The translations under genes were made by a program, and so were the position numbers. From NCBI RefSeq assembly GCF_003945235.1, contig NZ_RSDW01000001.1, positions 3,480,001-3,512,000 on the forward strand: a stretch of DNA of 32,000 nucleotides, in the 5' to 3' direction. This DNA is from Edaphobacter aggregans. Its GTDB lineage: Bacteria; Acidobacteriota; Terriglobia; Terriglobales; Acidobacteriaceae. The notes under the pieces are model-generated. The model did not search any database. It was given only the letters and a program-made list of their open reading frames with translations, and was not told the origin of the DNA. Of this stretch, positions 1 to 18,652 are shown piece by piece (position 1 is the stretch's first letter; every line of letters starts with the position of its first letter).

Positions 1-78
1 GTCGCAGCTCGCTTGAGAGGCTGCTTGTTTTTGAAAGGTATTCTCTTCGCTATCACGTTTGTGCGTGTGTGAGATTTT

Positions 79-1479
79 ATGACAATGCAGCAAGGTAAAT
101 GGGCATCGCTTTGGAACGCGCTTAGCGCCGCGGGAGATTTGTCTGGCCGCTTTGTATTTGGCGCGGAAGCAAGTATCGCTTTGAGCGACCTACTTGCCGG
201 GTCTGCTCTTTATGGTAGAGGTGATGAACTGGGTGGTCGATCCGTTCTTGTTACGACAACGAACCAGTTCACCACGGCCTCGGCACTCATAGAACTGGAC
301 GGCATCGCGCGCCGTATGGTTCTTTGTCCACCAGATTTACCGGTTGAACATCTACCGTACGTCATCGAATCGGCAAATGTCGATGCAATCGTATCCGACC
401 GTACGATACTTGGATTGGATATTCACCGCCCCCTATGCTTCTGTCCGTGCACTCGGAAGATTGTGCCCGAAAATTGTAGTCGGAGCGCACAATACCAAAC
501 GGAATGGATTCTTCTCACCTCTGGTACGACTGGGCTACCGAAACTTGTTGTCCACACATTATCTAGCTTGTCCGGCGCCATTAAGGCCGGCAGTGGTTCA
601 GCAGAACCGACCGTTTGGAGCACGTTCTACGACATTCGCCGTTACGGCGGTCTCCAGATATTCCTTCGCGCTTTCCTTACTGGGACGTCCTTAGTTCTTT
701 CGAGTGCGGAGGAGTCAACGGCAGATTTTCTTGCTCGAGCCGGCTCGCACGGAGTCACCCACATTTCCGGAACACCATGCCAGTGGCGCCGGGCGTTGAT
801 GAGTCCGTCAGCTAATCTTATCCAGCCCAAATATATTCGTTTGTCAGGAGAGATCGCGGATCAGGCAATCCTCAACCATCTGCGATCCTTTTATCCGCAA
901 GCTCGAATCGCGCACGCTTTCGCCTCAACAGAGGCCGGCGTGGCGTTTGAGGTGAACGATGGTATCGCGGGCTTTCCTGCAAGTGCGATAGAGGACACCC
1001 CCGATGTCGAAATGAAAGTTGAGGATCGTTCGTTGTGGATACGTTCAAATCGCACTGCAAGCCGCTATCTTGGCGACCAACCTCCTATCTTGAAAAACGC
1101 GGATGGATTTGTAGACACCCGCGACCTGATTGAATTGCGAGATGATAGATACTACTTCGTCGGTCGGCAGGATGGAGCGATTAACGTCGGAGGTTTGAAA
1201 GTGTACCCCGAAGAAGTGGAGGCGGTTATCAATCGTCATCCAGAGGTTCAGATGTCGTTAGTACGGACGAAAAGGAATCCGATTACGGGTGCGCTCGTCG
1301 TCGCCGACGTAGTTCTGACGGAACAACAATCTGCCAGTCGTGATATGCGTGCACTCCAGGGTGACATCCTACTGCTCTGCCGCGAAACTCTTTCTTCCCA
1401 TAAAGTTCCGGTCGCAATTAACTTTATTCCCGCGTTGGCGGTCACTGAATCTGGGAAACTCGTGCGCCGCAATGCGTAA
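79..1479 (+). CDS. AMP-dependent synthetase/ligase (adenylate-forming acyl-activating enzyme), short 466-aa form
   Basis: ATG-initiated ORF. Motifs: LLTSGTTGLPK (P-loop/A3), AFASTEAG (A5-like), FVDTRDL plus GRQDGAINVGGLKVYPEEVE (A7/A8), C-terminal SGKLVRR (A10 Lys). Stop TAA 1477-1479 overlaps the next ATG at 1472. Confidence 0.85.
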   Translation: MTMQQGKWASLWNALSAAGDLSGRFVFGAEASIALSDLLAGSALYGRGDELGGRSVLVTTTNQFTTASALIELDGIARRMVLCPPDLPVEHLPYVIESANVDAIVSDRTILGLDIHRPLCFCPCTRKIVPENCSRSAQYQTEWILLTSGTTGLPKLVVHTLSSLSGAIKAGSGSAEPTVWSTFYDIRRYGGLQIFLRAFLTGTSLVLSSAEESTADFLARAGSHGVTHISGTPCQWRRALMSPSANLIQPKYIRLSGEIADQAILNHLRSFYPQARIAHAFASTEAGVAFEVNDGIAGFPASAIEDTPDVEMKVEDRSLWIRSNRTASRYLGDQPPILKNADGFVDTRDLIELRDDRYYFVGRQDGAINVGGLKVYPEEVEAVINRHPEVQMSLVRTKRNPITGALVVADVVLTEQQSASRDMRALQGDILLLCRETLSSHKVPVAINFIPALAVTESGKLVRRNA

Positions 1480-2206
1480 TGTAATTGTGACAGGCGGAAG
1501 CCGAGGGTTGGGTCTGGGTATTGCCCGTAAATTGACGGAAACTGGATATCGTGTCATTGCAGTTGCGCGCAAACAAAATGATGAACTCGCGGTGGCAATG
1601 CAGGAAGCCGAAAAAGCGAATCCCGGATCGTTTCACTTCGCGCCCTTTGATCTCGCCGAGATCGAAGGCATTCCTGATTTGATCAAGACCTTGCGGAAAG
1701 ACTTCGGTCCGATCTATGGACTGGTTAATAACGCCGGTTTGAGTTTTGATGGAACTCTTGCCCTTATGCCTGTGTCCCAGATTGAACAACTTCTGCGTGT
1801 AAATACGCTGTCGCCAATTGTGTTCACCAAATATATGGTGCGCTCGATGATGGCTGATGGAGGCGGTCGCATCGTCAATATGGCGTCTATCACCGCCTTC
1901 ACAGGCTATAGTGGCCTCTCGGTGTACGGGGCAACAAAGGCATCGATCATTGGTTTTTCCCGATCTATAGCGCGAGAGGTCGGACGCATGGGAGTAAATG
2001 TGAATTCGGTCGCTCCTGGCTTCATCGAGACCGACATGACTCAGGGCATCAAAGACGAGCAGCGTCAGCAGATTGAGCGCCGCAGCGCCCTGAAACGCCT
2101 TGCGGACATCGATGATGTGGCAAATGCCGTCGAATTTCTTCTCAGCGATCGAGCGAAGAACATTACAGGAACGGTACTTACCGTCGATGCGGGTAATACG
2201 GCATGA
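1472..2206 (+). CDS. Short-chain dehydrogenase/reductase, FabG-like (3-oxoacyl reductase family)
   Basis: MRNVIVTGGSRGLGLGIARKL (TGxxxGxG Rossmann), NNAGL, YGATKAS (YxxxK), C-terminal ITGTVLTVDAGNT. The ORF-track start 1340 lies inside the upstream gene; ATG 1472 gives an 8-nt overlap (ATGCGTAA). Confidence 0.85.
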   Translation: MRNVIVTGGSRGLGLGIARKLTETGYRVIAVARKQNDELAVAMQEAEKANPGSFHFAPFDLAEIEGIPDLIKTLRKDFGPIYGLVNNAGLSFDGTLALMPVSQIEQLLRVNTLSPIVFTKYMVRSMMADGGGRIVNMASITAFTGYSGLSVYGATKASIIGFSRSIAREVGRMGVNVNSVAPGFIETDMTQGIKDEQRQQIERRSALKRLADIDDVANAVEFLLSDRAKNITGTVLTVDAGNTA

Positions 2207-4011
2207 CAGAGGTTCAAACAAATGCTCCAGTCAATGCGAATGGCTCTGCTGCCAAGGCCTGGTTGCGTGCGCTGGAACTGACCGCGCCGATCGCTCGTAA
2301 CCCTAATCGCGTTATGTCCACGGTGATGGAGGACCTGGCTGCGCGCTCGAGCGATGCGCCTGCTTTGCTATCCGACCGAGAGTGTCTGACATATCGAGAG
2401 CTTGCCGAACGTTCAAACCGATATGCCCGCTGGGCACTTAAGCAGGGTCTTGCTAAAGGCGAGGTCGTCTGCCTGTTGATGACGAATCGACCGGAATATT
2501 TTGTCATTTGGCTTGGTATAACAAGTGTCGGCGGTGTGGTTGCGCTGCTCAACACCAATCTTGTTGGTTCTTCGCTGGCACATTGCATCAATATAGTTTC
2601 GCCTAAACATCTGATTGTAGATGGAGAGTTCGTCGATGCGCTGACTACTGCGTTGCCGAGTCTCAGCGTGTCACCCGAGATCTGGGCACACGGCGTCGAA
2701 TGCGCCTCATACCAGCGTATCGATCTCGACATCGAGTACATATCGGGTGACACGTTGAGTCGGGAAGAGCGAAGGCCGTTAACCATCGAAGATCGGGCAC
2801 TTTACATCTTTACCTCTGGTACAACTGGACTACCTAAGGCTGCCAACATCAGCCATGCACGCGTCTTGCAATGGAGCCATTGGTTTGCCGGAATGATGGG
2901 AGCTCAGCAAACAGATCGGATGTACAACTGCTTGCCGATGTATCACAGCATTGGTGGTGTGCTGGTACCTGGTGCCGCTCTCGTTGGTGGCGGTTCCGTG
3001 GTCATTCGCGAAAAGTTTTCGGCTAGCCAGTTCTGGGCCGATGTCATTCGTTGGGACTGCACGATGTTTCAATACATCGGCGAGCTTTGCCGTTACTTAT
3101 TACACGCTGCACCGTCCTCAAATGAGAGAAGCCATCGAATCAGAATGGCTTGCGGCAATGGGTTGGCATCCGAAGTGTGGGAAGACTTTAAGGAACGGTT
3201 TCAAATCCCCCAAATCCTCGAATTCTACGCATCCACAGAAGGTGGCGTTTCTTTATTCAATGTTCAAGGAAAGCCCGGTGCGATCGGACATATTCCGACG
3301 TACCTAGCGCATCGATTTTCGCCACCGCTGGTAGTGTTCGACGTCGAGAAAGGCAAGCCGGTCCGAAATGACGAGGGATTCTGTATTCGCTGTGCTCCCA
3401 ACGAAATCGGCGAGGCGATCGGTAAGGTTGTGAACGATCTATCGAACATAGGCGGTCGGTTTGAGGGTTACACTGACAAGCGAGCATCGAACGAAAAAAT
3501 CCTTCGTGATGTTTTTGAGCTGGGAGATGCCTGGGTTCGCACCGGCGACCTTATGCGGAAAGACGAGAAGGGCTTTTTTTATTTTGTCGATCGTATAGGC
3601 GATACGTTTCGATGGAAGGGCGAGAACGTTGCGACCTCTGAAGTCTCAGAAGCGATTTGTACATTTCCAGGAGTCAAACACGCTAATGTCTACGGGGTGG
3701 CCATTCCAGGGACCGAAGGTCGCGGTGGCATGGCAGCGCTCGTTACCGAACATGAGATGGATCTACCGGCGTTTCGGAGGCATCTGATGAGCCGTCTTCC
3801 AGCCTACGCGCGTCCTTTGTTTCTGCGAATTCGAGATGATATTGAAGTAACTGGAACTTTCAAATATTCGAAAACTGATCTAGTACGTCAAGGATATGAT
3901 CCTGTTGCTATCACAGATGTCGTCTATTTTGACAGTCCCGAGTCGGAGGCGTTTGTTCAGCTCGACAAAGTATTGTACGACCGTATCCAAGACGGCCAGA
4001 TCCGTTTATAA
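2203..4011 (+). CDS. Long-chain/very-long-chain acyl-CoA synthetase, FATP/FadD6-like
   Basis: 602 aa. Motifs: YIFTSGTTGLPKAANISH, EFYASTEG, VRTGDLMRKDEKGFFYFVDRIGDTFRWKGENVATSEV, TGTFKYSK. This architecture is typical of fatty-acid-transport-protein type ligases. ATGA overlap with the SDR stop (2203-2206). Confidence 0.85.
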   Translation: MTEVQTNAPVNANGSAAKAWLRALELTAPIARNPNRVMSTVMEDLAARSSDAPALLSDRECLTYRELAERSNRYARWALKQGLAKGEVVCLLMTNRPEYFVIWLGITSVGGVVALLNTNLVGSSLAHCINIVSPKHLIVDGEFVDALTTALPSLSVSPEIWAHGVECASYQRIDLDIEYISGDTLSREERRPLTIEDRALYIFTSGTTGLPKAANISHARVLQWSHWFAGMMGAQQTDRMYNCLPMYHSIGGVLVPGAALVGGGSVVIREKFSASQFWADVIRWDCTMFQYIGELCRYLLHAAPSSNERSHRIRMACGNGLASEVWEDFKERFQIPQILEFYASTEGGVSLFNVQGKPGAIGHIPTYLAHRFSPPLVVFDVEKGKPVRNDEGFCIRCAPNEIGEAIGKVVNDLSNIGGRFEGYTDKRASNEKILRDVFELGDAWVRTGDLMRKDEKGFFYFVDRIGDTFRWKGENVATSEVSEAICTFPGVKHANVYGVAIPGTEGRGGMAALVTEHEMDLPAFRRHLMSRLPAYARPLFLRIRDDIEVTGTFKYSKTDLVRQGYDPVAITDVVYFDSPESEAFVQLDKVLYDRIQDGQIRL

Positions 4012-4135: not shown

Positions 4136-5665
4136 ATGGTCATCGATGAATTCAGGAGCGATTTCGCAAAGATTGAGTCTGAGATAGCGATGGGCCCCAT
4201 CGTGCCCAGTGTGACACCCGAAGAGATTCGGGATCATCTCACGTCTCGCTATAACTTCAAGAAGGCGATGACTCTTGAGGAAGTCATCGTCGATGTAGAA
4301 CAGATGTTAAGAACGTGGCAGGTCCAGGTCACCCATCCACGTTATTTCGGCCTCTTCAACCCGAGCGTGACGCTCGCATCTGTCGTTGCGGAGACCTTGG
4401 TAGCCATGTATAACCCTCAGTTGGCGAATTGGCGAACCTCGCCTGCGGGGAATGAGATCGAAAGGCATACTCTTAGTTGGCTCGCCGCAAAATTTGGCCT
4501 CCCAGCAAATGCCAGTTCAACATTCACGAGTGGTGGGTCGGAAGCCAATCTCTCAGCGGTCGTTGTCGCCTTAACGCGTGCTTTCCCCGACTATGGCGAA
4601 AATGGACTTCGAGATCTTACCGCGTTGCCCACGATCTACGTGACAGCGGAGGCGCATCATTCGTTCAACAAGATCGCGCATATAACCGGACTTGGAAGAA
4701 GGGCTTTGCGCACAGTAGCGACCGACTCATATTTGAAGCTTGATGTTGAAGATCTCAGAAGACGTGTAATAGAGGATCGAAAAATCGGATTAGCCCCCTT
4801 CATGGTGGTCGGCGCCGGCGGGACCACTGCAGCTGGCGTAATCGATCCCTTGACGGATATCGGACGCTTTTGCCAAGAGGAGAATCTTTGGTTTCACGTC
4901 GATGCCGCATGGGGGGGGGCCGCAATACTAGCTGAAAGCCTCAAGCACTATTTCGCCGGAATTGATACTGCAGATTCAATCACGTGTGATGCGCATAAAT
5001 GGTTCTCCGTGCCAATGGGAGCCGGGATGTTCTTCTGCCGTCATCCTGACGCCGTCGCGGAAGCCTTTCGAGCTGAAGTCTCCTATATGCCGAAGAAGAC
5101 GGATGGGTTTGTGGAGGATCCCTACACTACCTCAGTGCAATGGTCCCGCCGTTTTATCGGTTTGAAACTCTTCCTCGCGTTGGCGCAGCAGGGGGAATTG
5201 GGGTATGTCGAGATGATCGAGCACCAGACTCAGATGGGACAGGTGCTGCGCGAATCTCTTGAGTCCTCTGGGTGGCGAATCGTTAATACGACGCCGCTGC
5301 CACTCGTTTGTTTTACGCGGGAAGGACTCGATACCAGTAGGTTCCTCTCAGTTCTGCGAGAACGCCAGATTGTATGGATGTCAGAGGCGCAGCTCGATGG
5401 TACTCCTGTCTTACGCGCGTGTATCACCAGTTTCAAGACTACTGAAACGGATATTCACTGGGTGGTGGATGAGATGAATCGTCTCATCTGTCAAGGTGCC
5501 GGTCAAACCAGTACGAGGCCGGAGTCGGTCTCACCAGCACAGCCCAGACAGGGATGGAAACATGAAACGGGACACGATTGCTATTCACGGCGGCTACAAT
5601 GTAGATCCGACGACCAAGGCTGTAGCTGTGCCAATTTATCAGACGGTTTCTTACGCGTTCGATAG
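4136..5665 (+). CDS. Pyridoxal-phosphate-dependent decarboxylase, group II (fold type I)
   Basis: 509-aa ORF. SGGSEANL, HVDAAWGG and SITCDAHKWFSVPMGAGMFFCR (PLP-lysine motif S-x-x-x-x-HK) fit PF00282-type amino-acid decarboxylases. The last ~55 aa (QGAGQTSTRPESV...FLRVR) are Arg/Ser/Cys-rich, and the final 104 nt of this tail overlap the metY start, so they may not be native C-terminus. Confidence 0.8.
   Translation: MVIDEFRSDFAKIESEIAMGPIVPSVTPEEIRDHLTSRYNFKKAMTLEEVIVDVEQMLRTWQVQVTHPRYFGLFNPSVTLASVVAETLVAMYNPQLANWRTSPAGNEIERHTLSWLAAKFGLPANASSTFTSGGSEANLSAVVVALTRAFPDYGENGLRDLTALPTIYVTAEAHHSFNKIAHITGLGRRALRTVATDSYLKLDVEDLRRRVIEDRKIGLAPFMVVGAGGTTAAGVIDPLTDIGRFCQEENLWFHVDAAWGGAAILAESLKHYFAGIDTADSITCDAHKWFSVPMGAGMFFCRHPDAVAEAFRAEVSYMPKKTDGFVEDPYTTSVQWSRRFIGLKLFLALAQQGELGYVEMIEHQTQMGQVLRESLESSGWRIVNTTPLPLVCFTREGLDTSRFLSVLRERQIVWMSEAQLDGTPVLRACITSFKTTETDIHWVVDEMNRLICQGAGQTSTRPESVSPAQPRQGWKHETGHDCYSRRLQCRSDDQGCSCANLSDGFLRVR
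4911..4919 (+). repeat. G9 homopolymer inside the decarboxylase CDS
   Basis: Sequence gcat-ggggggggg-ccgc encodes W-G-G-A of HVDAAWGGAAIL. It is the longest homopolymer I saw in the window. Confidence 0.9.
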
Positions 5666-6839
5666 CGCCGACCATGCCTCGGCATTGTTCAATCTCGAGG
5701 CTGAAGGATTTCGCTATACCCGTATCGGGAACCCGACTACTGCAGTGTTGGAGCGGCGGGTCGCGGCGCTAGAAGGAGGGCTGGAAGCCCTGTGCGTCAG
5801 TAGCGGACAAGCGGCAGTTAACTATGCGGTTCTCAATGTTTCTCAGTTGGGAAGCAATATTGTTTCGGTTCCGCAACTCTATGGAACTACGCACACCCTA
5901 TTTGCGCACATTCTGCCAAGCCAGGGAGTCATTGTCCGATTCGCGGAGTCGGATCATCCGGAGGCGCTCAAAAAACTAATCGATGACAACACCCGTGCGA
6001 TCTTCTGTGAAAGTGTTGGTAATCCGGCAGGAAATATCTGCGATATCGAGTCGCTTGCTCGAATGGCTCACGAACACGGAGTGCCGCTGATCGTCGATAA
6101 TACGGTTGCCTCACCTATCCTTCTGCAGCCGATTGAATACGGCGCTGACATAGTTTTGCACTCTCTCACAAAGTTCCTGGGTGGACACGGCAATTCGCTC
6201 GGCGGAGCCATCGTCGACAGCGGCAATTTTCCGTGGGGAGACCACGCCTCAAGATTTCCGATGTTCAGCCAACCCGATGCCTCCTATCATGGGCTCGTCT
6301 ACACGGATCACTTCGGGAGAGGCGCCTATTTAGGACGGTGCCGCAGCTTCTACCAGCGAACCACCGGGGCTGTCTTGTCGCCACTGAACGCTTTCCTACT
6401 GCTGCAGGGAATCGAGACGGTCGCGCTACGAGTCGAGCGACACGTTGAGAATGGCAAAAAAGTAGCAGAATTTTTGAGCAATGACCCCAGAGTTAAGTGG
6501 GTTAATTATGCTGGATTTGCCGAGAGCCCTTATTATGCGTTGGCACAAAAATATATGTCCGGCCGCGCCTGCTCACTGATGACCGTTGGAATCATGGGGG
6601 GCTATGAAGCCGCGATTAAATTTCATGATGCATTGAAACTGGTGACCCGCCTCGTCAATCTGGGTGATGCCAAATCGTTGGCCTGCCATCCGGCCTCGAC
6701 GACGCATCGGCAAATGTCGGACGAAGCGAAACGCAGTGCTGGAGTCATGCCGGAGATGATTCGACTCAGCATCGGGATCGAGCACATCGACGACATCATC
6801 GAAGACCTGAATCAGGCACTCAGCGCAACAACATGCTGA
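5562..6839 (+). CDS. metY: O-acetylhomoserine sulfhydrylase / aminocarboxypropyltransferase (Cys/Met-metabolism PLP enzyme)
   Basis: MKRDTIAIHGGY...PIYQTVSYAF...YTRIGNPTT...HSLTKFLGGHGN (PLP Lys)...LGDAKSLACHPASTTHRQ...IRLSIGIEHIDDIIEDL is a classic MetY/MetZ-family signature. ATG 5562 was chosen because homology starts there; the ORF-track GTG 5496 adds a non-homologous leader. Confidence 0.9.
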   Translation: MKRDTIAIHGGYNVDPTTKAVAVPIYQTVSYAFDSADHASALFNLEAEGFRYTRIGNPTTAVLERRVAALEGGLEALCVSSGQAAVNYAVLNVSQLGSNIVSVPQLYGTTHTLFAHILPSQGVIVRFAESDHPEALKKLIDDNTRAIFCESVGNPAGNICDIESLARMAHEHGVPLIVDNTVASPILLQPIEYGADIVLHSLTKFLGGHGNSLGGAIVDSGNFPWGDHASRFPMFSQPDASYHGLVYTDHFGRGAYLGRCRSFYQRTTGAVLSPLNAFLLLQGIETVALRVERHVENGKKVAEFLSNDPRVKWVNYAGFAESPYYALAQKYMSGRACSLMTVGIMGGYEAAIKFHDALKLVTRLVNLGDAKSLACHPASTTHRQMSDEAKRSAGVMPEMIRLSIGIEHIDDIIEDLNQALSATTC

Positions 6840-6932
6840 TCGGTTCCCAATAATTCACGCCAATCTGACAATTTGATCGACCTCTACCCAAGGATCAATG
6901 GCAGATCAAGCAGAGCTTCGCCTGTGGCGCAC

Positions 6933-6961
6933 TTTACATGCGCGGAACATCACACTATAGC
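6933..6961 (+). promoter_or_regulatory. Candidate sigma70-type promoter for the rml-like operon (TTTACA-17 nt-TATAGC)
   Basis: TTTACA at 6933-6938, a 17-nt spacer, TATAGC at 6956-6961, 46 nt upstream of ATG 7008. A GGAGAG Shine-Dalgarno sits at 6995-7000. Pattern match only. Confidence 0.25.
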
Positions 6962-7007
6962 TATCTTCCGGTCTCGATAGTCCCTTTCGCTAACGGAGAG
7001 TACATCT

Positions 7008-7610
7008 ATGCCCTTGGAGTTGGATAGTTCACATCTTGGTGGGGAAGTTGTGGTTATTAAGCCTACAGTTTTGGGCGACGACCGTGGCTTTTTCATGGAA
7101 ACCTACCGCTACGACAACTTCCGAGACATGGGGTTGCCGACCGAATGGGTACAGGACAATCACTCACGTTCATCGAAGGGAGTTCTACGCGGTCTCCATT
7201 TTCAGTGGGATCCTCCAATGAGCAAATTGATGCGGGTGACTCGTGGTGCGGCCTTCCTTGTCGCAGTGGACATCCGAAAAGGATCGCCCACATTAGGCGA
7301 GTGGTTCGGCCTTGAAGTTACAGCAGACAACAAGAAGCAGATATATGCTCCGTACGGATTTGCGCGCGGCTTCTGTGCTCTTACTGATGAGTGTGAAGTG
7401 CAATACAAGTGCACGGGAATTTATAACTCCGGTGCAGAATCGGGAATTTACTACAAGGATCCCGAGATTGGCATTGAGTGGCCAATCACAGATGTCATTG
7501 TATCCACTAAGGATGCTAAGGCACAGTCCCTGAATCAATGGCTTGCCTCGTCACTGTCTGACAACATCGTCTATCAATCTAAATCCGAGTTTGCTGGAGG
7601 GGTGAAGTAA
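7008..7610 (+). CDS. rfbC: dTDP-4-dehydrorhamnose 3,5-epimerase family (RmlC-like cupin)
   Basis: GDDRGFFMETYR, SRSSKGVLRGLHFQ, RGFCALTDECEVQYKCTGIY and the ~200-aa length are typical of RmlC. A good SD precedes the start. Confidence 0.85.
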   Translation: MPLELDSSHLGGEVVVIKPTVLGDDRGFFMETYRYDNFRDMGLPTEWVQDNHSRSSKGVLRGLHFQWDPPMSKLMRVTRGAAFLVAVDIRKGSPTLGEWFGLEVTADNKKQIYAPYGFARGFCALTDECEVQYKCTGIYNSGAESGIYYKDPEIGIEWPITDVIVSTKDAKAQSLNQWLASSLSDNIVYQSKSEFAGGVK

Positions 7611-8618: not shown

Positions 8619-9475
8619 AAGTTGCCGTGCTGGGATCTAATGGACAACTTGGGAGCGATGTGTGTGCAGCCTTTCTACGGAATGGAGATCAAGTTATTGG
8701 TCTCACTCACTCGGATTTTGAGGTGACTTCGGCTTCCTGCGTCGATGCAGTGCTTTCCGCTTCCATGCCGGAGTTCATCGTCAATACGGCAGCGATGCAC
8801 CATGTAGAGAAATGCGAGGCTGATCCCATTGGCGCATTTCACAGCAATGCAATTGGTGCGAAGTTCGTGGCCGAATGGGCGAAACAGGCCGGCGCAACGG
8901 TAGCATACGTGAGCACTGATTATGTCTTCGATGGCAAGAAAGATGCTCCGTACTTGGAAATCGACTCTGCTGTCCCGCTCTCTGCTTACGGAATTACCAA
9001 GCTGGCGGGAGAACACTTTACTGCCGCAATCGCTGCGAAGTACTTCGTGCTTCGCGTTTCTGCCATTTATGGCCATCACCCATGCCGAGCAAAGGGTGGT
9101 CTCAACTTCGTCGAGTTGATGCTAAAGTTATCTCGCGAGCGAGACGAATTGCGCGTTGTTGATGATGAATTTGTCACACCGACTTCCACTGTACAGATCG
9201 CAGAGCAACTAATTGTGCTCAGTCGCTCGCGGCACTACGGCCTCTATCACGGAACCGCCGAAGGAAGCTGCTCGTGGTATGAGTTTGCTCGTGAGATCTT
9301 CCGTGCCACAGGCACCAGAATTCGCTTAGAGAAGGCGCGTCCCGGAGAGTTTCCGACAAAGGTTCCGCGCCCTAAATTCTCCGTTCTTGAGAATCAGGCA
9401 CTGAAAGCTGCTCATTTGAACGTGTTTACCGACTGGCGGGATGGATTGGATAGTTATCTCCGTACCCGCGCTTAG
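8615..9475 (+). CDS. rfbD: dTDP-4-dehydrorhamnose reductase family (RmlD-like)
   Basis: MKVAVLGSNGQLGSDV, NTAAMHHVEKCEADP, VSTDYVFDG, YGITKLAGE. GTG start overlaps the upstream stop (GTGA, 8615-8618). Confidence 0.85.
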   Translation: MKVAVLGSNGQLGSDVCAAFLRNGDQVIGLTHSDFEVTSASCVDAVLSASMPEFIVNTAAMHHVEKCEADPIGAFHSNAIGAKFVAEWAKQAGATVAYVSTDYVFDGKKDAPYLEIDSAVPLSAYGITKLAGEHFTAAIAAKYFVLRVSAIYGHHPCRAKGGLNFVELMLKLSRERDELRVVDDEFVTPTSTVQIAEQLIVLSRSRHYGLYHGTAEGSCSWYEFAREIFRATGTRIRLEKARPGEFPTKVPRPKFSVLENQALKAAHLNVFTDWRDGLDSYLRTRA

Positions 9476-9519
9476 TTCCAGTTAGCACGCGTAACAGGGT
9501 GGAAGGGGTTGTTGGCAGC

Positions 9520-10809
9520 ATGAGCGACAAATATTGCGATGTTGCCATTATTGGAGCCGGTATCATTGGGCTCGCGGTTGGTTTGCAACTCATTCGCAAG
9601 GATCCGAACCTGAAGATCATTGTTCTCGATAAGGAAAATGAAGTAGCTTCTCATCAGACGGGACATAATAGTGGTGTGCTGCATTCTGGCTTGTATTACA
9701 AGCCAGGTTCGCTCAAGGCGCGGCTCTGTGTTGAGGGCAGGGCGGCCATGATTCAGTTTTGCGAGGAGCACGCGATACCGTACGAGATCTGCGGCAAGAT
9801 CATCGTTGCAACCGAAGAACACGAGATACCTAGTCTCAATGAACTGTTGCGCCGCGGACGGACGAATGGCGTATCTGGCCTACGGGAGCTGGACGCGCAG
9901 CAGATTCATGAGATCGAGCCTCACGCATCGGGCCTACGCGGTATCCATATACCGACTACTGGTATCACTGACTTCAGAATGGTCTCGGCCAAGTATGCGG
10001 AGCTTATCAAGCAAGGTGGAGGCGAGGTTCTTACTAACTCTGGTGTCTCGCGCATTTTGTCTGAGGTTGGTGGGATCGTTCTTGAGACTTCTTTCGATGT
10101 CATACACGCGCGTTTCGCCGTCAACTGCGCAGGTTTGCAGAGCGACCGCATCGCTAGCATGGCTGGCGCCAGTCTTGGTCTTCGCATTATACCGTTCCGG
10201 GGCGAATACTTTGAGCTCGTGCCTGCGAAGCACCATCTCATCAAAGGCCTAGTGTATCCGGTTGCCGATCCCCGCTTTCCATTCTTGGGAGTTCATTTCA
10301 CCAAGCGAATTCACGGAGGTGTCGAAGCGGGTCCGAATGCGGTGCTCTCGTTCAAACGCGAGGGATATGCCCGAACGTCATTCAACCTCTCAGACACGCT
10401 CTCGACGGCTTTGTTCCTGGGTTTTTGGAAGATGGCCTCTCAGAACTGGGAATATGGGATGGAAGAAATCTACCGTTCTTGGAATCGGCAGGCGTTTACG
10501 CGCGCGCTGCAGAAGCTGTTGCCGAGTTTGACGGAGCAAGACATTCAGCCTGGAGGCTCGGGTGTACGTGCTCAGGCGTTGGATCATGACGGAAATCTAT
10601 TGGATGATTTTCATTTTATCTATCAGGATCGAATTCTCCACGTTTGCAACGTGCCTTCTCCGGCAGCCACAGCCTCTTTGTCGATCGGTAGGGAGATTGC
10701 TTCAATGCTCCATGGGCATGCTGCACTCAAAAAAGTGGAGCTTGTTGTTAAACAGGAGATAACATCGGCAAAAAACCTGGCTTCGTTGGCATGTCCCGAG
10801 AGCACTTAG
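9520..10809 (+). CDS. lhgO: L-2-hydroxyglutarate oxidase/dehydrogenase (FAD-dependent, LhgO/YgaF family)
   Basis: DVAIIGAGIIGLAVG (FAD GxGxxG), HQTGHNSGVLHSGLYYKPGSLKA, PFRGEYFEL, DPRFPFLGVHFTKRIHGGVEAGPNAVLSFKREGY and GVRAQALDHDGNLLDDF...CNVPSPAATASLSIG match my recollection of E. coli LhgO along the whole length. ATG 9520 is preferred over GTG 9499. Confidence 0.85.
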   Translation: MSDKYCDVAIIGAGIIGLAVGLQLIRKDPNLKIIVLDKENEVASHQTGHNSGVLHSGLYYKPGSLKARLCVEGRAAMIQFCEEHAIPYEICGKIIVATEEHEIPSLNELLRRGRTNGVSGLRELDAQQIHEIEPHASGLRGIHIPTTGITDFRMVSAKYAELIKQGGGEVLTNSGVSRILSEVGGIVLETSFDVIHARFAVNCAGLQSDRIASMAGASLGLRIIPFRGEYFELVPAKHHLIKGLVYPVADPRFPFLGVHFTKRIHGGVEAGPNAVLSFKREGYARTSFNLSDTLSTALFLGFWKMASQNWEYGMEEIYRSWNRQAFTRALQKLLPSLTEQDIQPGGSGVRAQALDHDGNLLDDFHFIYQDRILHVCNVPSPAATASLSIGREIASMLHGHAALKKVELVVKQEITSAKNLASLACPEST

Positions 10810-11358
10810 ATATGAAGGCGTGAGTGGCTTACCGGTGAAACTCCTCTTTCCCAAAAGTTCCAGCCGTAAATCAACTTGAGTCCTCTGCAACTAAATCGGC
10901 ATCATTTTTTACCTGTGTCGCCGGTGCTACCCGCCGATAACATATGCACTTTATTGTTAGGTCGAATGCAAAGACCTGCAACCTAGAATCACGCACGAAA
11001 GACTGCGCAAGTAGCCAAGCGATAATTTTCGCGAAATCAGAAATGAAATACCTTGATCATGTTTAGGAATGCCGCCATTACTATGGCCATCATCGTGCAA
11101 GCTAAGCGTATGTAGATCGACATTCGAAGTCAGCGCGGCCGAGTAAGGAATGTAGCCCACAGGGCAAAGCTATGTCTACTTGGACTGAATGTTGGATCAG
11201 GAAGAGCACAGCCAGTAACTATAGGTGGGTAAAGCGCCTATTGCTGAACTTTATAGGCCCAGCAATAAAGTACGTCTTTGCCCAGACTCCAATCACCGTG
11301 GCGCCCGATTGCAAATTTCTGGTGTCGAATCCCTAACCATTGAAAGAAAGGTGAAATT

Positions 11359-12033
11359 ATGAACACGACGCTACTCATGCCGCAGCAGCCGCAGAACCAT
11401 GTGCTCGACGCCTCCATCCAACAGCAGATCAATGCCATGATTGATGGCCTTATGGCTTCGTTGCCTGAAATGAGTCAACTGACCAAAGCTGAGCGGCGAG
11501 GGATAATTGCGCGATATACCGCAGTTCTGGAAGGAAATTTCATCTATTGGATGACGGCCACCCTTCTTGCCGTGCAGTCAGAAGATGCGCGCCCAATCCT
11601 CCTTGATAATCTCAACGAAGAAGTGCGCGATTCCCATCCGGTCATGCTGCGCAATTTCGCGGTTGCCGCCCAGGCTTTCCCGACAGACTCCGATGCGTTA
11701 GCCGTGAATGAAGAGTTAAATAGCGTCCGTCGCTTTCTGGGTCGGCTTTCCGCCGTGCAGTCGCTTCTGACAATGGCTTTCTTCGAAGGGTTCATACAAC
11801 GGTTTATGGCTTATTTGGCGGATCTTGCCAAAGCACAAGGCTCAGTTGATATGGAATACACAGATGTGCACGGTGTCTGCGATATTGCGCATACTGACGG
11901 TCTCTTCCGTGCACTTTCTATTGAGATGACTCTCAACCCGCTTGAACCGGAGAAAGATCTCTTCGAAGGCGTCTATCTCCTTCGCACCCTCATCGAGACC
12001 GTCGTCTTCAACCGGGACACACCCTCTGCCTGA
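11359..12033 (+). CDS. Heme-oxygenase-like diiron oxidase/oxygenase (HDO) candidate; iron-containing redox enzyme family
   Basis: 224 aa. Putative ligands: E87/E88...H93 (LNEEVRDSHPVML), E143 (MAFFEGF), H171-x3-D175-x2-H178 (DVHGVCDIAHTD). AAAGGTGA Shine-Dalgarno lies before ATG 11359. Assignment is by motif pattern only. Confidence 0.65.
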   Translation: MNTTLLMPQQPQNHVLDASIQQQINAMIDGLMASLPEMSQLTKAERRGIIARYTAVLEGNFIYWMTATLLAVQSEDARPILLDNLNEEVRDSHPVMLRNFAVAAQAFPTDSDALAVNEELNSVRRFLGRLSAVQSLLTMAFFEGFIQRFMAYLADLAKAQGSVDMEYTDVHGVCDIAHTDGLFRALSIEMTLNPLEPEKDLFEGVYLLRTLIETVVFNRDTPSA

Positions 12034-12057
12034 TCATTTCTACCGGGGGCATCTCAA

Positions 12058-12873
12058 GTGCAGACCCAACTTCATCAAGAGATCAGCTTGCCAGAGCAGG
12101 CCGGATACTTCACGGTCCCCGGTGCGGAGCTTTACGCAGTCCTGCATCAGGTTCCGGATCCGGTGGCGCGCGTTCTCCTCGTTGGACCATTCGCCTCCGG
12201 GCGGCATTTTTCATATCACCCATGGGTTCGCTGGGCCCGATATCTGGCCGCGAGGCGGATCGAAGTCCTTCGCTATGATTATCGCGGTATTGGCGAGAGC
12301 ACGGGTGTTTTCGAAGAAATGAGTTTTGAGAACTGGAGCGAAGACGTCCAACTTCTTGCCGATTGGGTCATACGCCGGTCGCCCAGCGTCCCGCTTGTGC
12401 TCCATGGGCTCGAACTAGGAGCCATACTCGCCGCCAGATGTTTCCATAAGGGCACAGGCGATGCATTGCTACTGTGGTCTCCGCCTGCTAATGCGAACCA
12501 GGCACTCCGTTCGAGCCTCTTGTACTGGGCGGGGTTGGGACAATTAAACGAGTCTCCCGAGAACCGGAAGACAGTCTCGGAATATATCCGGCAATTAGAA
12601 GAGGGTTCTTTTATCGAAGTACAGGGATATCAATGGTCGAGTCGTCTGTGGCGCGACTCTTTTCACTTTGACTTGCCCGCGACCATGAGAGATGAAAGCT
12701 CTTGCGAATCATACAAAAAGCCAATCAAGGTAATTAAGCTTGGAAAAGAGGCTGCTCCTCTGGTGAAGTCGCATTTTGGGAATGGCGAAGCTAGGGACTT
12801 CAGCTGCCTATACTCCAGTAATTACGACTGGATTGCCGGAGCCTTAGCCCTCTCGCACAGGGGGATGCAATGA
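12058..12873 (+). CDS. Alpha/beta-hydrolase-fold protein with atypical nucleophile elbow G-L-E-L-G (resembles exosortase-A-associated hydrolase 2, from memory)
   Basis: GTG start, with no in-frame ATG until residue 88. VLLVGPFASGRH...RYDYRGIGESTG...PLVLHGLELGAILAA shows alpha/beta-hydrolase topology, but Glu119 (nt 12412-12414) occupies the position where the GxSxG serine is expected. Confidence 0.65.
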   Translation: MQTQLHQEISLPEQAGYFTVPGAELYAVLHQVPDPVARVLLVGPFASGRHFSYHPWVRWARYLAARRIEVLRYDYRGIGESTGVFEEMSFENWSEDVQLLADWVIRRSPSVPLVLHGLELGAILAARCFHKGTGDALLLWSPPANANQALRSSLLYWAGLGQLNESPENRKTVSEYIRQLEEGSFIEVQGYQWSSRLWRDSFHFDLPATMRDESSCESYKKPIKVIKLGKEAAPLVKSHFGNGEARDFSCLYSSNYDWIAGALALSHRGMQ

Positions 12874-13766
12874 AAGAAACGATTGAAACACGTGAGTTGA
12901 TCGTGCTGGATGGTCTCGACGTCACTATCCGAGGCACCTATCATAAGACCTACGATGACAACCTAGCCGCACAGTCAAACCCGGTCGCGCAACCCCGCAT
13001 CGGGGTTTTGTTCCTGAATTCTATTTCGCCGACGAGAGCTGCGCATGGCGATGCGGCGGTTTATTGGGCCGACTCGTTTGCGGAGTGTGGCTATCCGTCC
13101 TTTCGACTTGATCTGCCAGGATTCGGAGACTCCGAAGGAGATCTTCCAGAAGATTTGGCTGGCTTTATCAACCAAGGGGGGTATGCATCCATTGTCTCCG
13201 CTAAGGTCAGAGAGCTTGTGGCTCGATTCAACCTATCGGGAGTAGTCATAGTGGGTCAATGCGCAAGCGGTGTCTCGGCACTTTATACGGCCGCCGCCTC
13301 GCCAAAGTGCAAAGGCCTTGTTTTGATGGACCCATACTTCTACTTGCCACAAGCAAAACGGCCAGTGATTCGACGGGAATGGGGTACTTGGTTTTTACAT
13401 AGTCGTCGCCAGTTTTCGAGTATTGTTTATGATCGTCTGAAAAGGATTGGCTGTTTTCTCCGCGGGGGAGACCTGCCGAAGAATGCCAATTATCTACTTC
13501 TTAGTTCCTGGAAGAAACTGACGCCCAAAGGATTGCCGGTTCTTATCCTAAAGGGGCCCGACTGTAGAACTCTCAACATGAAACCGAGGGCTGGTGAGTT
13601 CGACTACTTAGAGTATCTTCTGAAAGTTGCAGGTCGCGGAAGTAAGGTCGTCGTAAAAGTGACGAATAGCGCCAATAAGGCTTTCGTGAACCATCAGGGC
13701 CGAGTTGCGGTTCGGCAGCATACTGAACAGTGGCTAAATGCCTATTTCCCATTGGTAAAGCCTTGA
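12870..13766 (+). CDS. Alpha/beta-hydrolase-fold protein with Cys at the nucleophile position (resembles exosortase-A-associated hydrolase 1, from memory)
   Basis: IGVLFLNS...RLDLPGFGDSEG...VVIVGQCASGVSALYTAA...GLVLMDPYF...LPVLILKG...VTNSANKAF...QHTEQWL. Cys131 (nt 13260-13262) sits at the elbow. Lys270 (nt 13677-13679) sits where the family His (G-A-D-H-x-F) is expected. ATGA overlap with the upstream stop. Confidence 0.65.
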   Translation: MKETIETRELIVLDGLDVTIRGTYHKTYDDNLAAQSNPVAQPRIGVLFLNSISPTRAAHGDAAVYWADSFAECGYPSFRLDLPGFGDSEGDLPEDLAGFINQGGYASIVSAKVRELVARFNLSGVVIVGQCASGVSALYTAAASPKCKGLVLMDPYFYLPQAKRPVIRREWGTWFLHSRRQFSSIVYDRLKRIGCFLRGGDLPKNANYLLLSSWKKLTPKGLPVLILKGPDCRTLNMKPRAGEFDYLEYLLKVAGRGSKVVVKVTNSANKAFVNHQGRVAVRQHTEQWLNAYFPLVKP

Positions 13767-13841
13767 GACCACCTTGCATACCGGCACGACAAATATTAGA
13801 AGGCACAACGAACTTCGTTCTATACCTTTTGTGTTGGAGTT

Positions 13842-14259
13842 GTAGCCGATTGCAATACGGATCGACATAGTTTTGTGCTTAGCCATCGTCGATAGTGGCA
13901 ATTATTCCGTAAAAGACGACGGCAGAATTTTGAGCAATGATTCCAAGTTAAGTGGGTCGATTATGTTGGGTTCGTCGAAAGTCCTTATCATGCATCGGCA
14001 CAAATATATGGTGGCTACTCGCTAATGGCTGTAGGGATCACGGGGCTACGAAGCCAGCAGTTAAATTTCATTTTGCGTTGAAGCTGGTGGCACGGTTTGT
14101 CAATCTGGTGACACCAAATCGTTGGTCTGCCTCTGCCTCGACGACGCATCGACGAATGTCGGATGAAGCGAAACGCAGCGCCGAAGTCATGGCTCGGGAT
14201 CGAACACTGCGACGATATTATCGCCTGATCTGAATCTGGCGCTCAACGCAACCGTGTAA
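13842..14259 (+). pseudogene. Decayed duplicate of the 3' half of metY (internal deletions, frameshifts)
   Basis: Hand alignment to metY 6128-6839 in the same orientation. gccgattgcaatacggatcgacatagttttg matches gccgattgaatacggcgctgacatagttttg. agccatcgtcgatagtggcaatt (13881-13903) matches agccatcgtcgacagcggcaatt (6206-6228). gcagaattttgagcaatga matches gcagaatttttgagcaatga (6464-). cctcgacgacgcatcgacgaatgtcggatgaagcgaaacgcag matches cctcgacgacgcatcggcaaatgtcggacgaagcgaaacgcag. Equivalents of ~6161-6205 and ~6247-6463 are missing. The 93-aa ORF 13952-14233 retains ...STTHRRMSDEAKRSAEVM (metY: STTHRQMSDEAKRSAGVM). Confidence 0.8.
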
Positions 14260-14310
14260 ATAAATGATCGTTACAGAATACCCTGATGCCGATTTTCCGA
14301 GGGTACACTT

Positions 14311-15375
14311 ATGCCTATTTGTTCGAGTTCTAGTCGTTTCGTTCATGACCGGCGGTCAGGCAGCAACACGCCTGCGGAATGCCGGGAACGGTCGAGTAAG
14401 TGCGTCACAATCGGATTGATCAATAACATGGCGGACGGGGCTCTCGATGCAACAGAGCGCCAGTTTATTTCGCTTCTCGATTCGGTTTCCGATGACATAC
14501 AAATTAGACTATCGTTTCATGCGTTACCTAACGTTCCCAGGAGTGAGCTAGGTACAAACCATATCAAAAATTTCTATTCGAGTGTCGAGAGTCTTTGGGA
14601 TAAGAGCCTTGACGGACTCATAGTGACCGGCAGAGAGCCTCTCGCATCGAATCTGAAGGATGAACCTTACTGGGATAGTTTTACAGAAGTCCTTGAGTGG
14701 GCTAAGGAAAACACTTACTCGACCATCTGGTCTTGCCTGGCCGCGCACGCTGCGCTATTGCACATAGATGGGATCGATCGTGTCAGGAGCAACGATAAAT
14801 TCTGCGGTATCTTCGAGTGTGCCCGGCTGTCAGATCACCCCCTGACGACAGATGCGCCGTCGCGCTTCAACCTTCCACACTCCCGGTGGAACGGCATACC
14901 TGAAGACGCTTTGACAAGTTGTGGATATAGCATACTCACGCGAGCGGCGGATGCCGGCGTTGATACGTTCGTAGGGCGGCACAAAAGCCTCTTCGTCTTT
15001 TTTCAGGGTCACCCAGAGTACGAATCCAATACGTTGCTGCTTGAATACCGCAGGGATGTTGGGCGTTACCTCCGTGGAGAGACAAATATCTATCCACTGA
15101 TGCCGCGAAGCTACTTCGATCACAGGACTGTGATTGCATTGAAGGCGCTTCAAAACGAAGCTACGTCCCGCCCACGCGTAGACTTACTCGCGGACGTCTC
15201 TGCTGCATTAGGAAAGTCAAAAATCGAAAACACCTGGTACTCAACAGCTGTATGCATTTACCGAAACTGGCTGGAGTATATATGTGCGCAGAAGCAGCTA
15301 CGATTGAAAGACAGATCTCTATCCTGTCAACGCCCGCGAAATCTGGTATGGCCGCACCAGCGACTAAGCTTCTGA
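14311..15375 (+). CDS. metA: Homoserine O-acyltransferase (MetA/HTS family; succinyl versus acetyl specificity not decidable)
   Basis: [56 protein letters not shown] (active-site Cys context), [27 protein letters not shown]. The C-terminal ~25 aa ([25 protein letters not shown]) overlap the next gene. Confidence 0.85.
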
Positions 15376-16790
15376 TCAATAATCGCTGGGTTGCAAGTGA
15401 ATCCGGCGACACCTTCGCGACGGTAAATCCCGCCACCGGCGAGGAAATCTGCCAAGTTGCTGCGGCTAATGCCATCGATGTGGAGAAGGCCGTTTTTGCA
15501 GCGCGGACGGCTTTTGAAACAGGTCCTTGGCGGAAGATGCACGCATCAGAGCGGGGGCGCCTGCTCTACATTCTTGCCGATCTGATCGAAAATAATGCTG
15601 ACGAACTCGCCCAGCTCGAATCTCTCGATAACGGTAAACCAGTTTCAGTGGCGAAGAGAGTGGATGTTGCCAAGACAGTTGCTTGCTATCGATATTTCGC
15701 GGGATGGGCGGACAAGATTCAGGGCAAAACCATTCCCATTGACGGCGATTTTTTTTGCTACACCCGGCATGAACCCATCGGCGTAGTCGGACAAATCATC
15801 CCTTGGAATTATCCCATGCTGATGCAGGCGTGGAAGCTTGCCCCGGCGTTGGCCACAGGAAATACCGTCGTTATGAAGCCGGCCGAGCAAACCCCTCTCT
15901 CCTCGCTACGCATCGGGGAATTGGTTGTTGAAGCGGGTTTTCCGGAAGGCGTCGTCAATATATTGTCGGGATTCGGTCCCACAGCAGGTGCGGCGATCGC
16001 GCGTCACATGGACGTGGACAAGGTGGCATTCACCGGATCCACCGAAATTGGGCGTCTAATCTTGGAAGCCGCAGCAAAGTCCAATCTGAAGCGAGTCACT
16101 CTTGAACTCGGCGGAAAAAGCCCGAATATCGTATTCGAGGATACGGATCTCGACGAAGCGGTAGAAGGCGCGCACTTGGGACTCTTTTCCAACCAGGGTC
16201 AAATTTGTTGTGCCGGTTCAAGAGTGTTCGTCGAAGAGAAGATCTATGATCAGTTCGTAGAAAAAAGTGCGACTCGTGCCCACAAACGTGTAGTCGGAGA
16301 CCCGTTCGATCCTAAGACAGAACAAGGTCCGCAGGTAGATCAGGCGCAGTTCGACAAAGTGATGGGCTATATCGAATCAGGACAAAGTGAAGGTGCTACG
16401 CTTGTCTGCGGTGGCAAGCGCGTCGGACATCGTGGCTACTTCATCGAGCCCACCGTGTTCGCCGACGTTCAGGACGACATGAAGGTTGCCCGCGAAGAAA
16501 TCTTCGGACCGGTGATGAGTGTCATCCCGTTTAAGAATCTCGATGAAGTAATCACTCGGGCAAACCGAACGGATTACGGATTGGCAGCAGGGGTGTGGAC
16601 ACGAGACATCAAAAAGGCGCACGCGATTGCAAATGGAGTGCGCGCTGGTACGGTATGGGTGAATTGCTACAACATTTTGGATACTCGGGCTCCCTTCGGT
16701 GGATTCAAACAGTCAGGAACGGGACGTGAACTAGGCGAGTACGGACTGCAGCAGTATTCGGAAGTTAAAACCATCATTGTCAGGCTTTGA
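15282..16790 (+). CDS. NAD(P)-dependent aldehyde dehydrogenase (ALDH1/2-like)
   Basis: [60 protein letters not shown] (catalytic Glu), [13 protein letters not shown] (catalytic Cys), EEIFGPV. Start is uncertain: ATG 15282 has GGAG 5 nt upstream, whereas ATG 15348 (MAAPATK...) would give a shorter 28-nt overlap with metA. Confidence 0.9.
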
Positions 16791-16941: not shown

Positions 16942-17174
16942 GTTCGGGGCTGAACGACAGCTTAACCGCAGATCTATCACGTTCCTAGTGAGGTGTACGA
17001 TGTGAAAAATGTCTGAAACGACTTAAAGGTGCTTAGTGAGGTTATGAGGTGTTTCCAATGTGGTCTATCAGCCACGTGTACGATGGAATTGTCTTTCCGG
17101 GGAAGCCGCCAGCCTCGTAGACGAAGGTATAGTTGCAGTCAGTATATGAAGAAGCAACCCCAGTTTCTGGGGGG

Positions 17175-18644: not shown

Positions 18645-18652
18645 AAACATCT

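Follow-up and report, generated by a model that had tools for sequence, protein, structure and literature searches.

A divergent relative of the exosortase-A-associated hydrolase pair in Edaphobacter aggregans couples a cysteine-elbow alpha/beta-hydrolase to a nucleophile-less partner

The protein families TIGR03101 and TIGR03100 (hydrolase 2 and hydrolase 1, exosortase A system-associated) are both classed by NCBI as 'hypothetical equivalog', that is, without tested function. The original PEP-CTERM paper does not mention either family (PMC1569441), and the sole literature mention that we found concerns Bcam1334, which is annotated in a Burkholderia cenocepacia polysaccharide cluster and was guessed to act there as a hydrolase that trims polysaccharide (PMC3584217). 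Here we analyse a pair of overlapping genes, encoding proteins that we refer to as A and B, in a 32,000-nucleotide stretch of the Edaphobacter aggregans genome (contig NZ_RSDW01000001.1, positions 3,480,001 to 3,512,000 of the forward strand; hereafter the window, in which all nucleotide positions below are given). A and B are homologous to hydrolase 2 and hydrolase 1, respectively; the position of the catalytic nucleophile is occupied by Glu119 in A and by Cys131 in B, and in related genomes the pair is linked to genes for a small carrier protein and for polysaccharide assembly. Our interpretation, to which we give about an even chance, is that A and B form one unit in which B would use Cys131 to transfer an acyl group from the carrier protein, with A as its non-catalytic partner.

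Other enzyme systems offer mechanistic precedents for such an arrangement. A Cys nucleophile in the alpha/beta-hydrolase fold is typical of transfer, cyclisation or polymerisation, as in polyhydroxyalkanoate (PHA) synthases and Cys thioesterase domains, and not of plain hydrolysis. The class III/IV PHA synthases (PhaC with PhaE or PhaR) have an alpha/beta-hydrolase catalytic subunit with a Cys-Asp-His triad, form an acyl-S-Cys intermediate and need a second, non-catalytic subunit. Their combination of a Cys-dependent and a non-catalytic subunit resembles the one proposed for B and A, whereas no sequence relationship is detectable, the partner here would be a dead alpha/beta hydrolase, and the donor here is probably a carrier protein and not coenzyme A (CoA). 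Dienelactone hydrolase and the Cys thioesterase domains of the obafluorin and sulfazecin synthetases carry Cys for Ser at the G-x-Nu-x-G elbow, and for such thioesterase domains the acyl donor is a phosphopantetheine carrier. Unlike A and B, these enzymes consist of one domain or one subunit and have no paralogous dead partner, and we found no specific similarity to them. In Dlt D-alanylation, the ligase DltA loads the carrier protein DltC, after which transfer to teichoic acid proceeds via a membrane-bound O-acyltransferase (MBOAT) and DltD. The resemblance here, consisting of an adenylating enzyme, a small carrier and an acyl group destined for a cell-envelope polymer, is one of functional analogy only, as the transfer proteins are unrelated and homology is not claimed.

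The gene for protein A (12058..12873, forward strand) starts with GTG and encodes 271 residues, and the gene for protein B (12870..13766, forward strand) starts with ATG and encodes 298 residues. The stop codon of the former and the start codon of the latter overlap in the tetranucleotide ATGA (12870..12873), an arrangement, read from the sequence itself, that allows translational coupling. Direct reading of the codons placed Glu119 of A (GAA, 12412..12414) within HGLELGA at the nucleophile-elbow position, Cys131 of B (TGC, 13260..13262) within VGQCASG at its nucleophile elbow, and Lys270 of B (AAG, 13677..13679) within NSANKAFVNHQGR in the catalytic-His loop, and confirmed the coordinates, the three residues and the ATGA overlap reported in the first-pass annotation of this DNA. 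Two further codons recur below, namely that of Gly48 in A (12199..12201), which lies in a column kept as Glu across the whole superfamily, and that of Asp245 in B (13602..13604), a candidate triad acid in a column that is invariantly Asp in homologues.

Both proteins belong to the alpha/beta-hydrolase superfamily, and the sequence of A is 100% identical to that of a known E. aggregans protein. Above-threshold Pfam matches were obtained for A (Hydrolase_4, 38.2 bits; Abhydrolase_6, 27.6 bits) and for B (Abhydrolase_1, 32.3 bits; Abhydrolase_6, 26.9 bits), and an AlphaFold model of B built from 97 homologues (predicted local distance difference test [pLDDT] 82.1, predicted template-modelling score [pTM] 0.81) agrees with this assignment, as do its Foldseek matches. 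The nearest solved folds for B are feruloyl esterases and lipases, with an expectation value (E) of about 1e-11, a template-modelling (TM) score of about 0.6 and approximately 15% identity. Solved Hydrolase_4-type esterases and lipases (feruloyl esterases 7wwh and 7z2x; TTL lipase, 7q4h and 9h0z; PET46, 8b4u) share the core of the fold and the motifs DxRGxGxS and G-x-D/N-H-x-F with the A and B families. They are canonical Ser-Asp-His monomers or homodimers, however, and none has Cys or Glu at the elbow. Alignment to families and to solved structures gave no Ser nucleophile in either window protein, A having Glu and B having Cys at the elbow with Lys at the His position, and so the non-canonical elbows proposed earlier were upheld.

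To place the pair among curated families, we compared both proteins with NCBIfam models. The top match of A was TIGR03101 (65.6 bits against a cut-off of 202.75) and that of B was TIGR03100 (40.4 bits against a cut-off of 168.45); the orthologues from Alloacidobacterium are also under the cut-offs, at 70.2 bits for A and 57.6 bits for B. Among the matches to the A profile there were about 16 natural two-domain proteins of 546–657 residues, whose N-terminal half resembles A, with the elbow GLRxGA, and whose C-terminal half resembles B, with GLCGGA or GLCDGA and either xNHxF or DHTF. Two of these fusions, P0380 and P0386, pass both curated cut-offs, with TIGR03101 matching the N-terminal half (272 and 309 bits, respectively) and TIGR03100 the C-terminal half (324 and 342 bits), which is the same order as A followed by B. 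A search with P0386 returned 479 relatives; the best 120 of these 479 all have the length of a fusion, many carry the name 'exosortase A-associated hydrolase 1/hydrolase 2', and they come mainly from Burkholderiales, e.g. Massilia, Ideonella, Rubrivivax and Chitinivorax. Across 65 bona fide fusions the elbow residues Arg111 and Cys402, together with Asp518 and His553, are invariant, the two elbows reading WGLRxGA and WGLCDGA and the His motif ADHTF.

Using hhalign, we found that the A alignment matches the hydrolase-2 half of the 65 fusions with a probability of 99.5% (E 3.5e-22, 184 columns) and that the B family matches the hydrolase-1 half with a probability of 98.95% (E 1e-17). In these alignments Glu119 of A falls on Arg111, Cys131 of B on Cys402, and the column of Lys270 on His553. 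The elbow motifs that the first-pass annotation had given for the exosortase-A pair, and the His motif that it had given for the TIGR03100 type, were essentially right. As A and B are homologous to the exosortase-A pair yet lie far under the curated cut-offs, we regard them as divergent sister families and not as members; the earlier description of a divergent version of that pair is supported at the level of homology. The A–B pair and the ten-gene cluster described below fall outside all curated models and are a variant of a known, functionally uncharacterised pair. The traits of that pair are distributed accordingly: hydrolase-2-like and hydrolase-1-like proteins occur in the same order and adjoin one another (here with a 4-nt overlap), hydrolase 1 has the Cys elbow, which window B shares, and hydrolase 2 is without a nucleophile. 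In contrast, the Arg of the WGLRxGA elbow is absent from window A, which has Glu119, and the His of A-D-H-T-F is replaced by Lys270 in window B. There is also no exosortase in the window: no exosortase or PEP-CTERM family scored above threshold among the open reading frames (ORFs) of the 32,000 nucleotides, the rest of the genome being outside the scope of the analysis.

A pattern scan found the pair in 136 stretches of species-representative genomes, and the species-level counts given here refer to 92 copies of A and 93 copies of B from 80 loci of different species. In the AlphaFold model of B, Cys131 lies between strand 124–130 and helix 133–143, which is the nucleophile elbow. Its column contains Cys in 95 of the 97 homologues and Tyr in the other 2, and across species it contains Cys in 91/93 copies, the other 2 being unaligned there. 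Judged from these alignments, Cys at the B elbow is a family trait. Lys270 is found in the loop between the last core strand (260–264) and the last helix (275–292) of the model, corresponding to the catalytic-His loop, and in a profile of the B family the motif dGadHsF coincides with GGDHTF and GANHTF, the catalytic-His motifs of 9pjb and 7wwh. The 97 homologues have His (70), Asn (20), Arg (5), Gln (1) or, in the window alone, Lys (1) at this column, while the 93 species copies have His in 84, Asn in 3 and Arg in 1. The suggestion that Lys270 replaces an expected His is thus accurate for the window copy and does not extend to the family, and the alignments identify Lys270 as an idiosyncrasy of the E. 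aggregans genome. The nearby His275 is not conserved, as 73 of the 97 homologues have Arg in its column. Asp245, in contrast to His275, is Asp in 97/97 homologues and in 90/93 species copies, and in the model it directly precedes helix 246–253, after a poorly modelled loop. The full pattern of Cys, Asp245 and His is present in 83/93 B copies. In our interpretation the ancestral B triad would have been Cys, an acid and His, with Lys270 taking the place of His in the window genome.

Protein A has a different pattern. Glu119 aligns on the catalytic Ser of the GLSLG and GLSMG elbows in the solved lipases 9h0z and 7q4h, and across species this position is Glu in 77, Gly in 12 and Ala in 3 of the 92 copies, and never Ser. 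An exhaustive search with the A-family profile gave 7759 relatives at E ≤0.001; wherever the elbow could be aligned, Arg was the most frequent residue, in the form GLRLGALL, the others were Glu, Gly, Gln and Ala, and Ser was again never found. No conserved His or Asp was seen in the C-terminal half of A among the homologues aligned. An elbow without Ser is, as far as these comparisons indicate, a trait of the A family, and as part of the evenly weighted interpretation above, A would be a paralogue that has lost its triad and that, not being catalytic itself, shapes or docks B as its partner. Elsewhere in A, column 48 is Glu in 84/87 A–B pairs, with the window copy contributing the sole Gly, and it corresponds to Glu41 of the exosortase-type fusions, which is invariant in all 65. 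We considered whether Gly48 in A is coupled to the loss of His in B, i.e. correlated decay, and rejected this, as the Asn270 clade retains Glu48.

The two genes are rarely seen apart. B follows A directly in 91/92 cases, mostly with an overlap of 1–17 nt, a figure that is approximate as it is measured from the start of the B profile match. Gene fusion in relatives is classical evidence of physical association, and the hydrolase 2–hydrolase 1 fusions of the exosortase-A type argue for joint action of A and B as a single unit. Modelled from 65 sequences, the Massilia oculi fusion reached a pLDDT of 90.8 and a pTM of 0.90 over 595 residues; a pTM this high requires the two domains to pack in a defined way and so indicates a confidently packed two-domain unit. 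No solved structure matched the two-domain fusion as a whole (query TM-score ≤0.33). A and B have also been duplicated in tandem as a unit, in two or three copies, at loci L045, L065, L068, L069, L071 and L084, lying at about 10000–15000 in all of these except L071, and at L071 the duplicated unit comprises A, B and the carrier protein. In these tandem loci the elbow residue is Gly in the first copy of A and Glu in those that come after it; all B copies retain Cys and His. Taken from gene order and protein models, A and B are probably one functional unit, a heterodimer. The earlier proposal of a heteromer with one non-catalytic subunit gains indirect support from the same-order fusions, the fusion model, the near-constant pairing and the unit-wise duplication.

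The genes that accompany the pair point to a carrier protein. In related Acidobacteriaceae, A and B are part of a ten-gene array that encodes, in order, a heme-oxygenase-like enzyme, A, B, an 81-residue carrier protein, a first adenosine monophosphate (AMP)-binding enzyme, a FabG-like reductase, a second AMP-binding enzyme of the long-chain acyl-CoA synthetase type, a group II pyridoxal phosphate (PLP)-dependent decarboxylase, an O-acetylhomoserine-sulfhydrylase-like enzyme and a MetA-type homoserine O-succinyltransferase. The complete set is present in 34/60 full-length loci, and an aldehyde dehydrogenase gene often follows MetA. The 81-residue protein is a phosphopantetheine-binding (PP-binding) carrier, as 18/18 sequences match PF00550 with an invariant GLDSL and its profile matches the solved carriers MacpD (E 3.5e-6) and the carrier domain of the aflatoxin polyketide synthase. 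Its gene lies within 400 nt after B in 70/84 copies. Three reduced forms of the cluster were found, consisting of the heme-oxygenase-like gene, A, B, the carrier and MetA (L015, L016, L026 and L036), of A, B and the carrier only (L059, L066 and L073), or of A and B only (L047). These reduced versions suggest that A, B and the carrier protein are the core module.

A second link is to polysaccharide assembly. In approximately 30 related loci the array immediately follows a block of WecG/STAS, glycosyltransferase family 2 (GT2), Poly_export and chain-length-kinase genes, and the A–B-only locus L047 adjoins genes for a PIG-L deacetylase and sugar-nucleotide enzymes. Nucleophile-less A-like domains were found at the C-terminus of GT2 glycosyltransferases (P0263 and P0297) and of Wzx-type flippases (P0251 and P0275). 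The exosortase-type loci have comparable content: in 4/4, an 81–88-residue gene stands directly upstream of the fusion, and its product is PP-binding by Pfam in 3/4; an AMP-ligase and a decarboxylase of the ornithine/diaminopimelate/arginine (Orn/DAP/Arg) type are present in 4/4, a FemAB-like acyltransferase and DegT in 3/4, and Asn synthase in 2/4; and glycosyltransferase, flippase and regulator genes flank the loci. An adjacent carrier protein of about 81 residues, an AMP-ligase, a PLP decarboxylase and a polysaccharide setting are therefore common to both types of cluster. They differ in the fold group of the decarboxylase (group II here, Orn/DAP/Arg type there) and in the position of the carrier-protein gene, which follows B in the acidobacterial cluster and precedes the pair in the exosortase-A type. 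The acidobacterial cluster adds the heme-oxygenase-like enzyme, a second ligase, the reductase, the sulfhydrylase-like enzyme and MetA, and is without the DegT aminotransferase, FemAB-like acyltransferase and Asn-synthase genes. The N-termini of A and B, judged by eye and not with a predictor, are not signal-peptide-like, and cytoplasmic, carrier-dependent chemistry would fit them as so judged. The trimming-hydrolase role guessed for Bcam1334 fits poorly with the carrier-protein linkage, and also with a cytoplasmic location if the N-termini were judged rightly.

These features led us to a specific proposal for the mechanism. An adjacent adenylating enzyme would load the 81-residue phosphopantetheine carrier protein of the same cluster, and an acyl or aminoacyl group would then pass from the carrier thiol to Cys131 of B as a thioester. 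B, the presumed acyl-enzyme subunit, would hand this group on to an acceptor with an amine or a hydroxyl, a cytoplasmic polysaccharide precursor being the likeliest candidate. A would be a partner that is obligate but not catalytic, and it might dock B to the carrier protein or to the machinery of glycosyltransferases and flippases.

Several points weigh against this proposal. The most general is that, at the present level of evidence, a hydrolysing thioesterase would look identical. B would in that case be a Cys-dependent thioesterase that hydrolyses the acyl-carrier thioester for release or proof-reading, without transfer, and A would still be its partner. The fold, the Cys-acid-His pattern and the adjacency of the carrier protein serve this explanation equally well; stand-alone alpha/beta-hydrolase thioesterases commonly adjoin carrier proteins, and dienelactone hydrolase, an alpha/beta hydrolase with Cys, His and Asp, can hydrolyse. 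Type II thioesterases use Ser, however, a Cys nucleophile being typical of transfer, and loss of the His in the Asn270 and Lys270 variants would cripple the activation of water. A dedicated, conserved non-catalytic partner with fusions to glycosyltransferases and flippases is also hard to explain for plain hydrolysis. We consider the thioesterase explanation unlikely, if still a serious contender. Two other points tell against acyl transfer by the pair. We found no functional study of the TIGR03100 or TIGR03101 families in the open literature, and hhalign sets the acid of the fusions, Asp518, opposite Lys238 of B and not opposite Asp245, while it pairs the shared Glu-Phe of both families (Glu243-Phe244 of B with Glu523-Phe524 of the fusions). 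The triad acid of B would thus be Asp245 by conservation and the canonical post-strand position by hhalign, and Asp245 is best called a candidate.

The remaining points against concern the window copy itself. Window B lacks the catalytic His, and Ser267, Lys270 and Val273 of its His loop are each unique among the 97 homologues; window A lacks the superfamily-invariant Glu48; and the carrier-protein gene of the window does not adjoin B but lies about 12 kb upstream. Since His has been lost in B, Glu48 has been lost in A and the carrier-protein gene has been separated, the window copy may work differently or poorly. A stronger version of this idea is that the pair is decayed or repurposed in E. 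aggregans, both proteins perhaps being non-catalytic binding or scaffold proteins, and here the locus order, which is permuted relative to the canonical array, and the combination of Gly48 in A with Lys270 in B, found in no other pair of the 87, are further signs in its favour. Both ORFs are intact and full-length, on the other hand, and window B keeps all 18 family-invariant residues plus Cys131. Accelerated evolution of window B was rejected, as the B/A divergence ratio of the window pair (1.32) exceeds the mean (1.25, standard deviation 0.06) by only about one standard deviation, which argues against a general acceleration or a grossly long branch. Furthermore, the 20 Asn270 homologues retain the rest of the His loop, and the three Asn270 loci that we looked at (L007, L008 and L010) retain the cluster, so that a His-less form of B seems viable. 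Decay or repurposing of the window pair is on balance improbable.

We give very little weight to the view that A and B are independent enzymes in which Glu119 of A acts as a carboxylate nucleophile or base, like the Asp of dehalogenases and epoxide hydrolases. Asp nucleophiles do occur in the alpha/beta-hydrolase fold, and Glu119 is invariant (76/76) among the close homologues of A. Its replacement by Gly or Ala in 15/92 orthologous copies and by Arg in the 65 exosortase-type fusions nevertheless indicates that Glu119 is not a Glu nucleophile, and this view is at odds with the lack of a conserved His or acid in the C-terminal half of A and with the obligate pairing and fusion with B. It is similarly far-fetched that A and B constitute a PHA-synthase-like polymerase, in which a Cys-acyl enzyme with an accessory subunit would make an oligo-ester or polyester from hydroxyacyl thioesters supplied via the FabG-like reductase: B has the Cys nucleophile with an Asp/His pattern and a second subunit is needed, the cluster has acyl-activating enzymes and the reductase resembles acetoacetyl-CoA reductase (TIGR01829, 182 bits), but neither A nor B matched a PhaC or PhaE family in Pfam or NCBIfam at E ≤1, feruloyl esterases and lipases lead the fold matches, of which the top 50 include no PhaC, and the four exosortase-type clusters have no reductase gene. 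PHA-synthase kinship was rejected, being without sequence or fold support.

The cluster is present in the window in a permuted order, as revealed by comparison of window positions 1–16790 with L001 and L007–L086. The window begins inside the carrier-protein gene, whose 3' end is at 3..98 on the forward strand; by hand translation it ends in VRFYDNAAR followed by the stop codon, compared with FYENAAR and a stop in related loci, and tblastn gave the same short match. This trace (nt 3–98) was the only one that tblastn detected in the window, and there is no carrier-protein gene downstream of B. The gene overlaps that of adenylate-forming enzyme 1 by 20 nt, as in L001, and the two are translationally coupled. 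The cluster genes whose coordinates follow are all on the forward strand. Adenylate-forming enzyme 1 (79..1479; 466 residues; Pfam AMP-binding) is kept in the cluster. It is followed by the FabG-like short-chain dehydrogenase (1472..2206; Pfam adh_short; TIGR01830, 206 bits), whose ATG at 1472 gives MRNVIVTGG, and by adenylate-forming enzyme 2 of the long-chain acyl-CoA synthetase type (2203..4011; NF006134, 764 bits against a cut-off of 625). Next come the group II PLP-dependent decarboxylase (4136..5665; Pfam Pyridoxal_deC, 227 bits) and the O-acetylhomoserine sulfhydrylase-like PLP enzyme (5496..6839; TIGR01326, 598 bits against a cut-off of 495). Instead of preceding the carrier gene, the heme-oxygenase-like gene, A and B stand as a block after the sulfhydrylase-like gene and ahead of MetA, and rmlC, an epimerase gene, rmlD and an L-2-hydroxyglutarate-oxidase-like gene are inserted before the heme-oxygenase-like gene (7008–10809). 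After B come the MetA-type homoserine O-succinyltransferase (14311..15375; NF003776, 385 bits against a cut-off of 358), the last conserved cluster gene, and then an aldehyde dehydrogenase. As mechanically called, the overlap reaches 170 nt between the ORFs of the decarboxylase and the sulfhydrylase-like enzyme (5496–5665) and is 124 nt between those of MetA and the aldehyde dehydrogenase (15252–15375). The true starts are probably further downstream, and the called genes of related loci overlap by 29–40 nt for the decarboxylase/sulfhydrylase-like pair.

The heme-oxygenase-like gene (11359..12033, forward strand) encodes a putative di-iron enzyme of 224 residues, scores 27.3 bits against a cut-off of 28.9 for Pfam Haem_oxygenas_2, and is the first gene of a three-gene unit with A and B; in most related loci too it is directly 5' of A. 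In an alignment of 77 sequences, conservation is 97% or higher at each of Glu58, Glu87, Glu88, His93, Glu143, Asp169, His171, Asp175 and His178, and in sequence these look like a di-iron ligand set. The protein has no close solved relative and no NCBIfam model, and the exosortase-type clusters are without it. A promoter and terminator scan around the three-gene unit gave no signal above shuffled controls. Further along, at 17133–30987, the window encodes large TPR (tetratricopeptide repeat), FG-GAP and ASPIC/UnbV proteins, typical Acidobacteria content for which we saw no link to the pair. This region includes a 1277-residue protein with an embedded AhpC/TSA redoxin domain (23080–26913, reverse strand) and a 1258-residue outer-membrane beta-barrel protein with a CarboxypepD_reg domain.

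These results reveal that a sister family of the TIGR03100/TIGR03101 pair is widespread in soil Acidobacteriaceae. In both families a subunit with a Cys nucleophile is paired with one that has no nucleophile, and a carrier protein is encoded next to them, and the fusions to each other, to glycosyltransferases and to flippases tie the pair to polysaccharide assembly. Tentatively, and with rather more doubt than for the core proposal that A and B act as one Cys131-dependent unit, we suggest that hydrolase-2-like/hydrolase-1-like pairs, whether split or fused as in Burkholderiales, could be a previously unrecognised class of carrier-protein-dependent acyltransferases that decorate exopolysaccharide precursors via an acyl-S-Cys intermediate. 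The dead-hydrolase subunit would then be an adaptor to the glycosyltransferase or flippase, and in the acidobacterial version the heme-oxygenase-like enzyme, the PLP enzymes and the ligases of the cluster would make the unusual acyl or aminoacyl group that the pair delivers. The comparison turns the vague annotation of a long-unexplained gene pair into a concrete, testable hypothesis. If true, it would explain how acyl decoration reaches the exopolysaccharides of soil and activated-sludge bacteria, and a heteromeric, pseudoenzyme-assisted Cys acyltransferase would join the repertoire of the alpha/beta-hydrolase fold.

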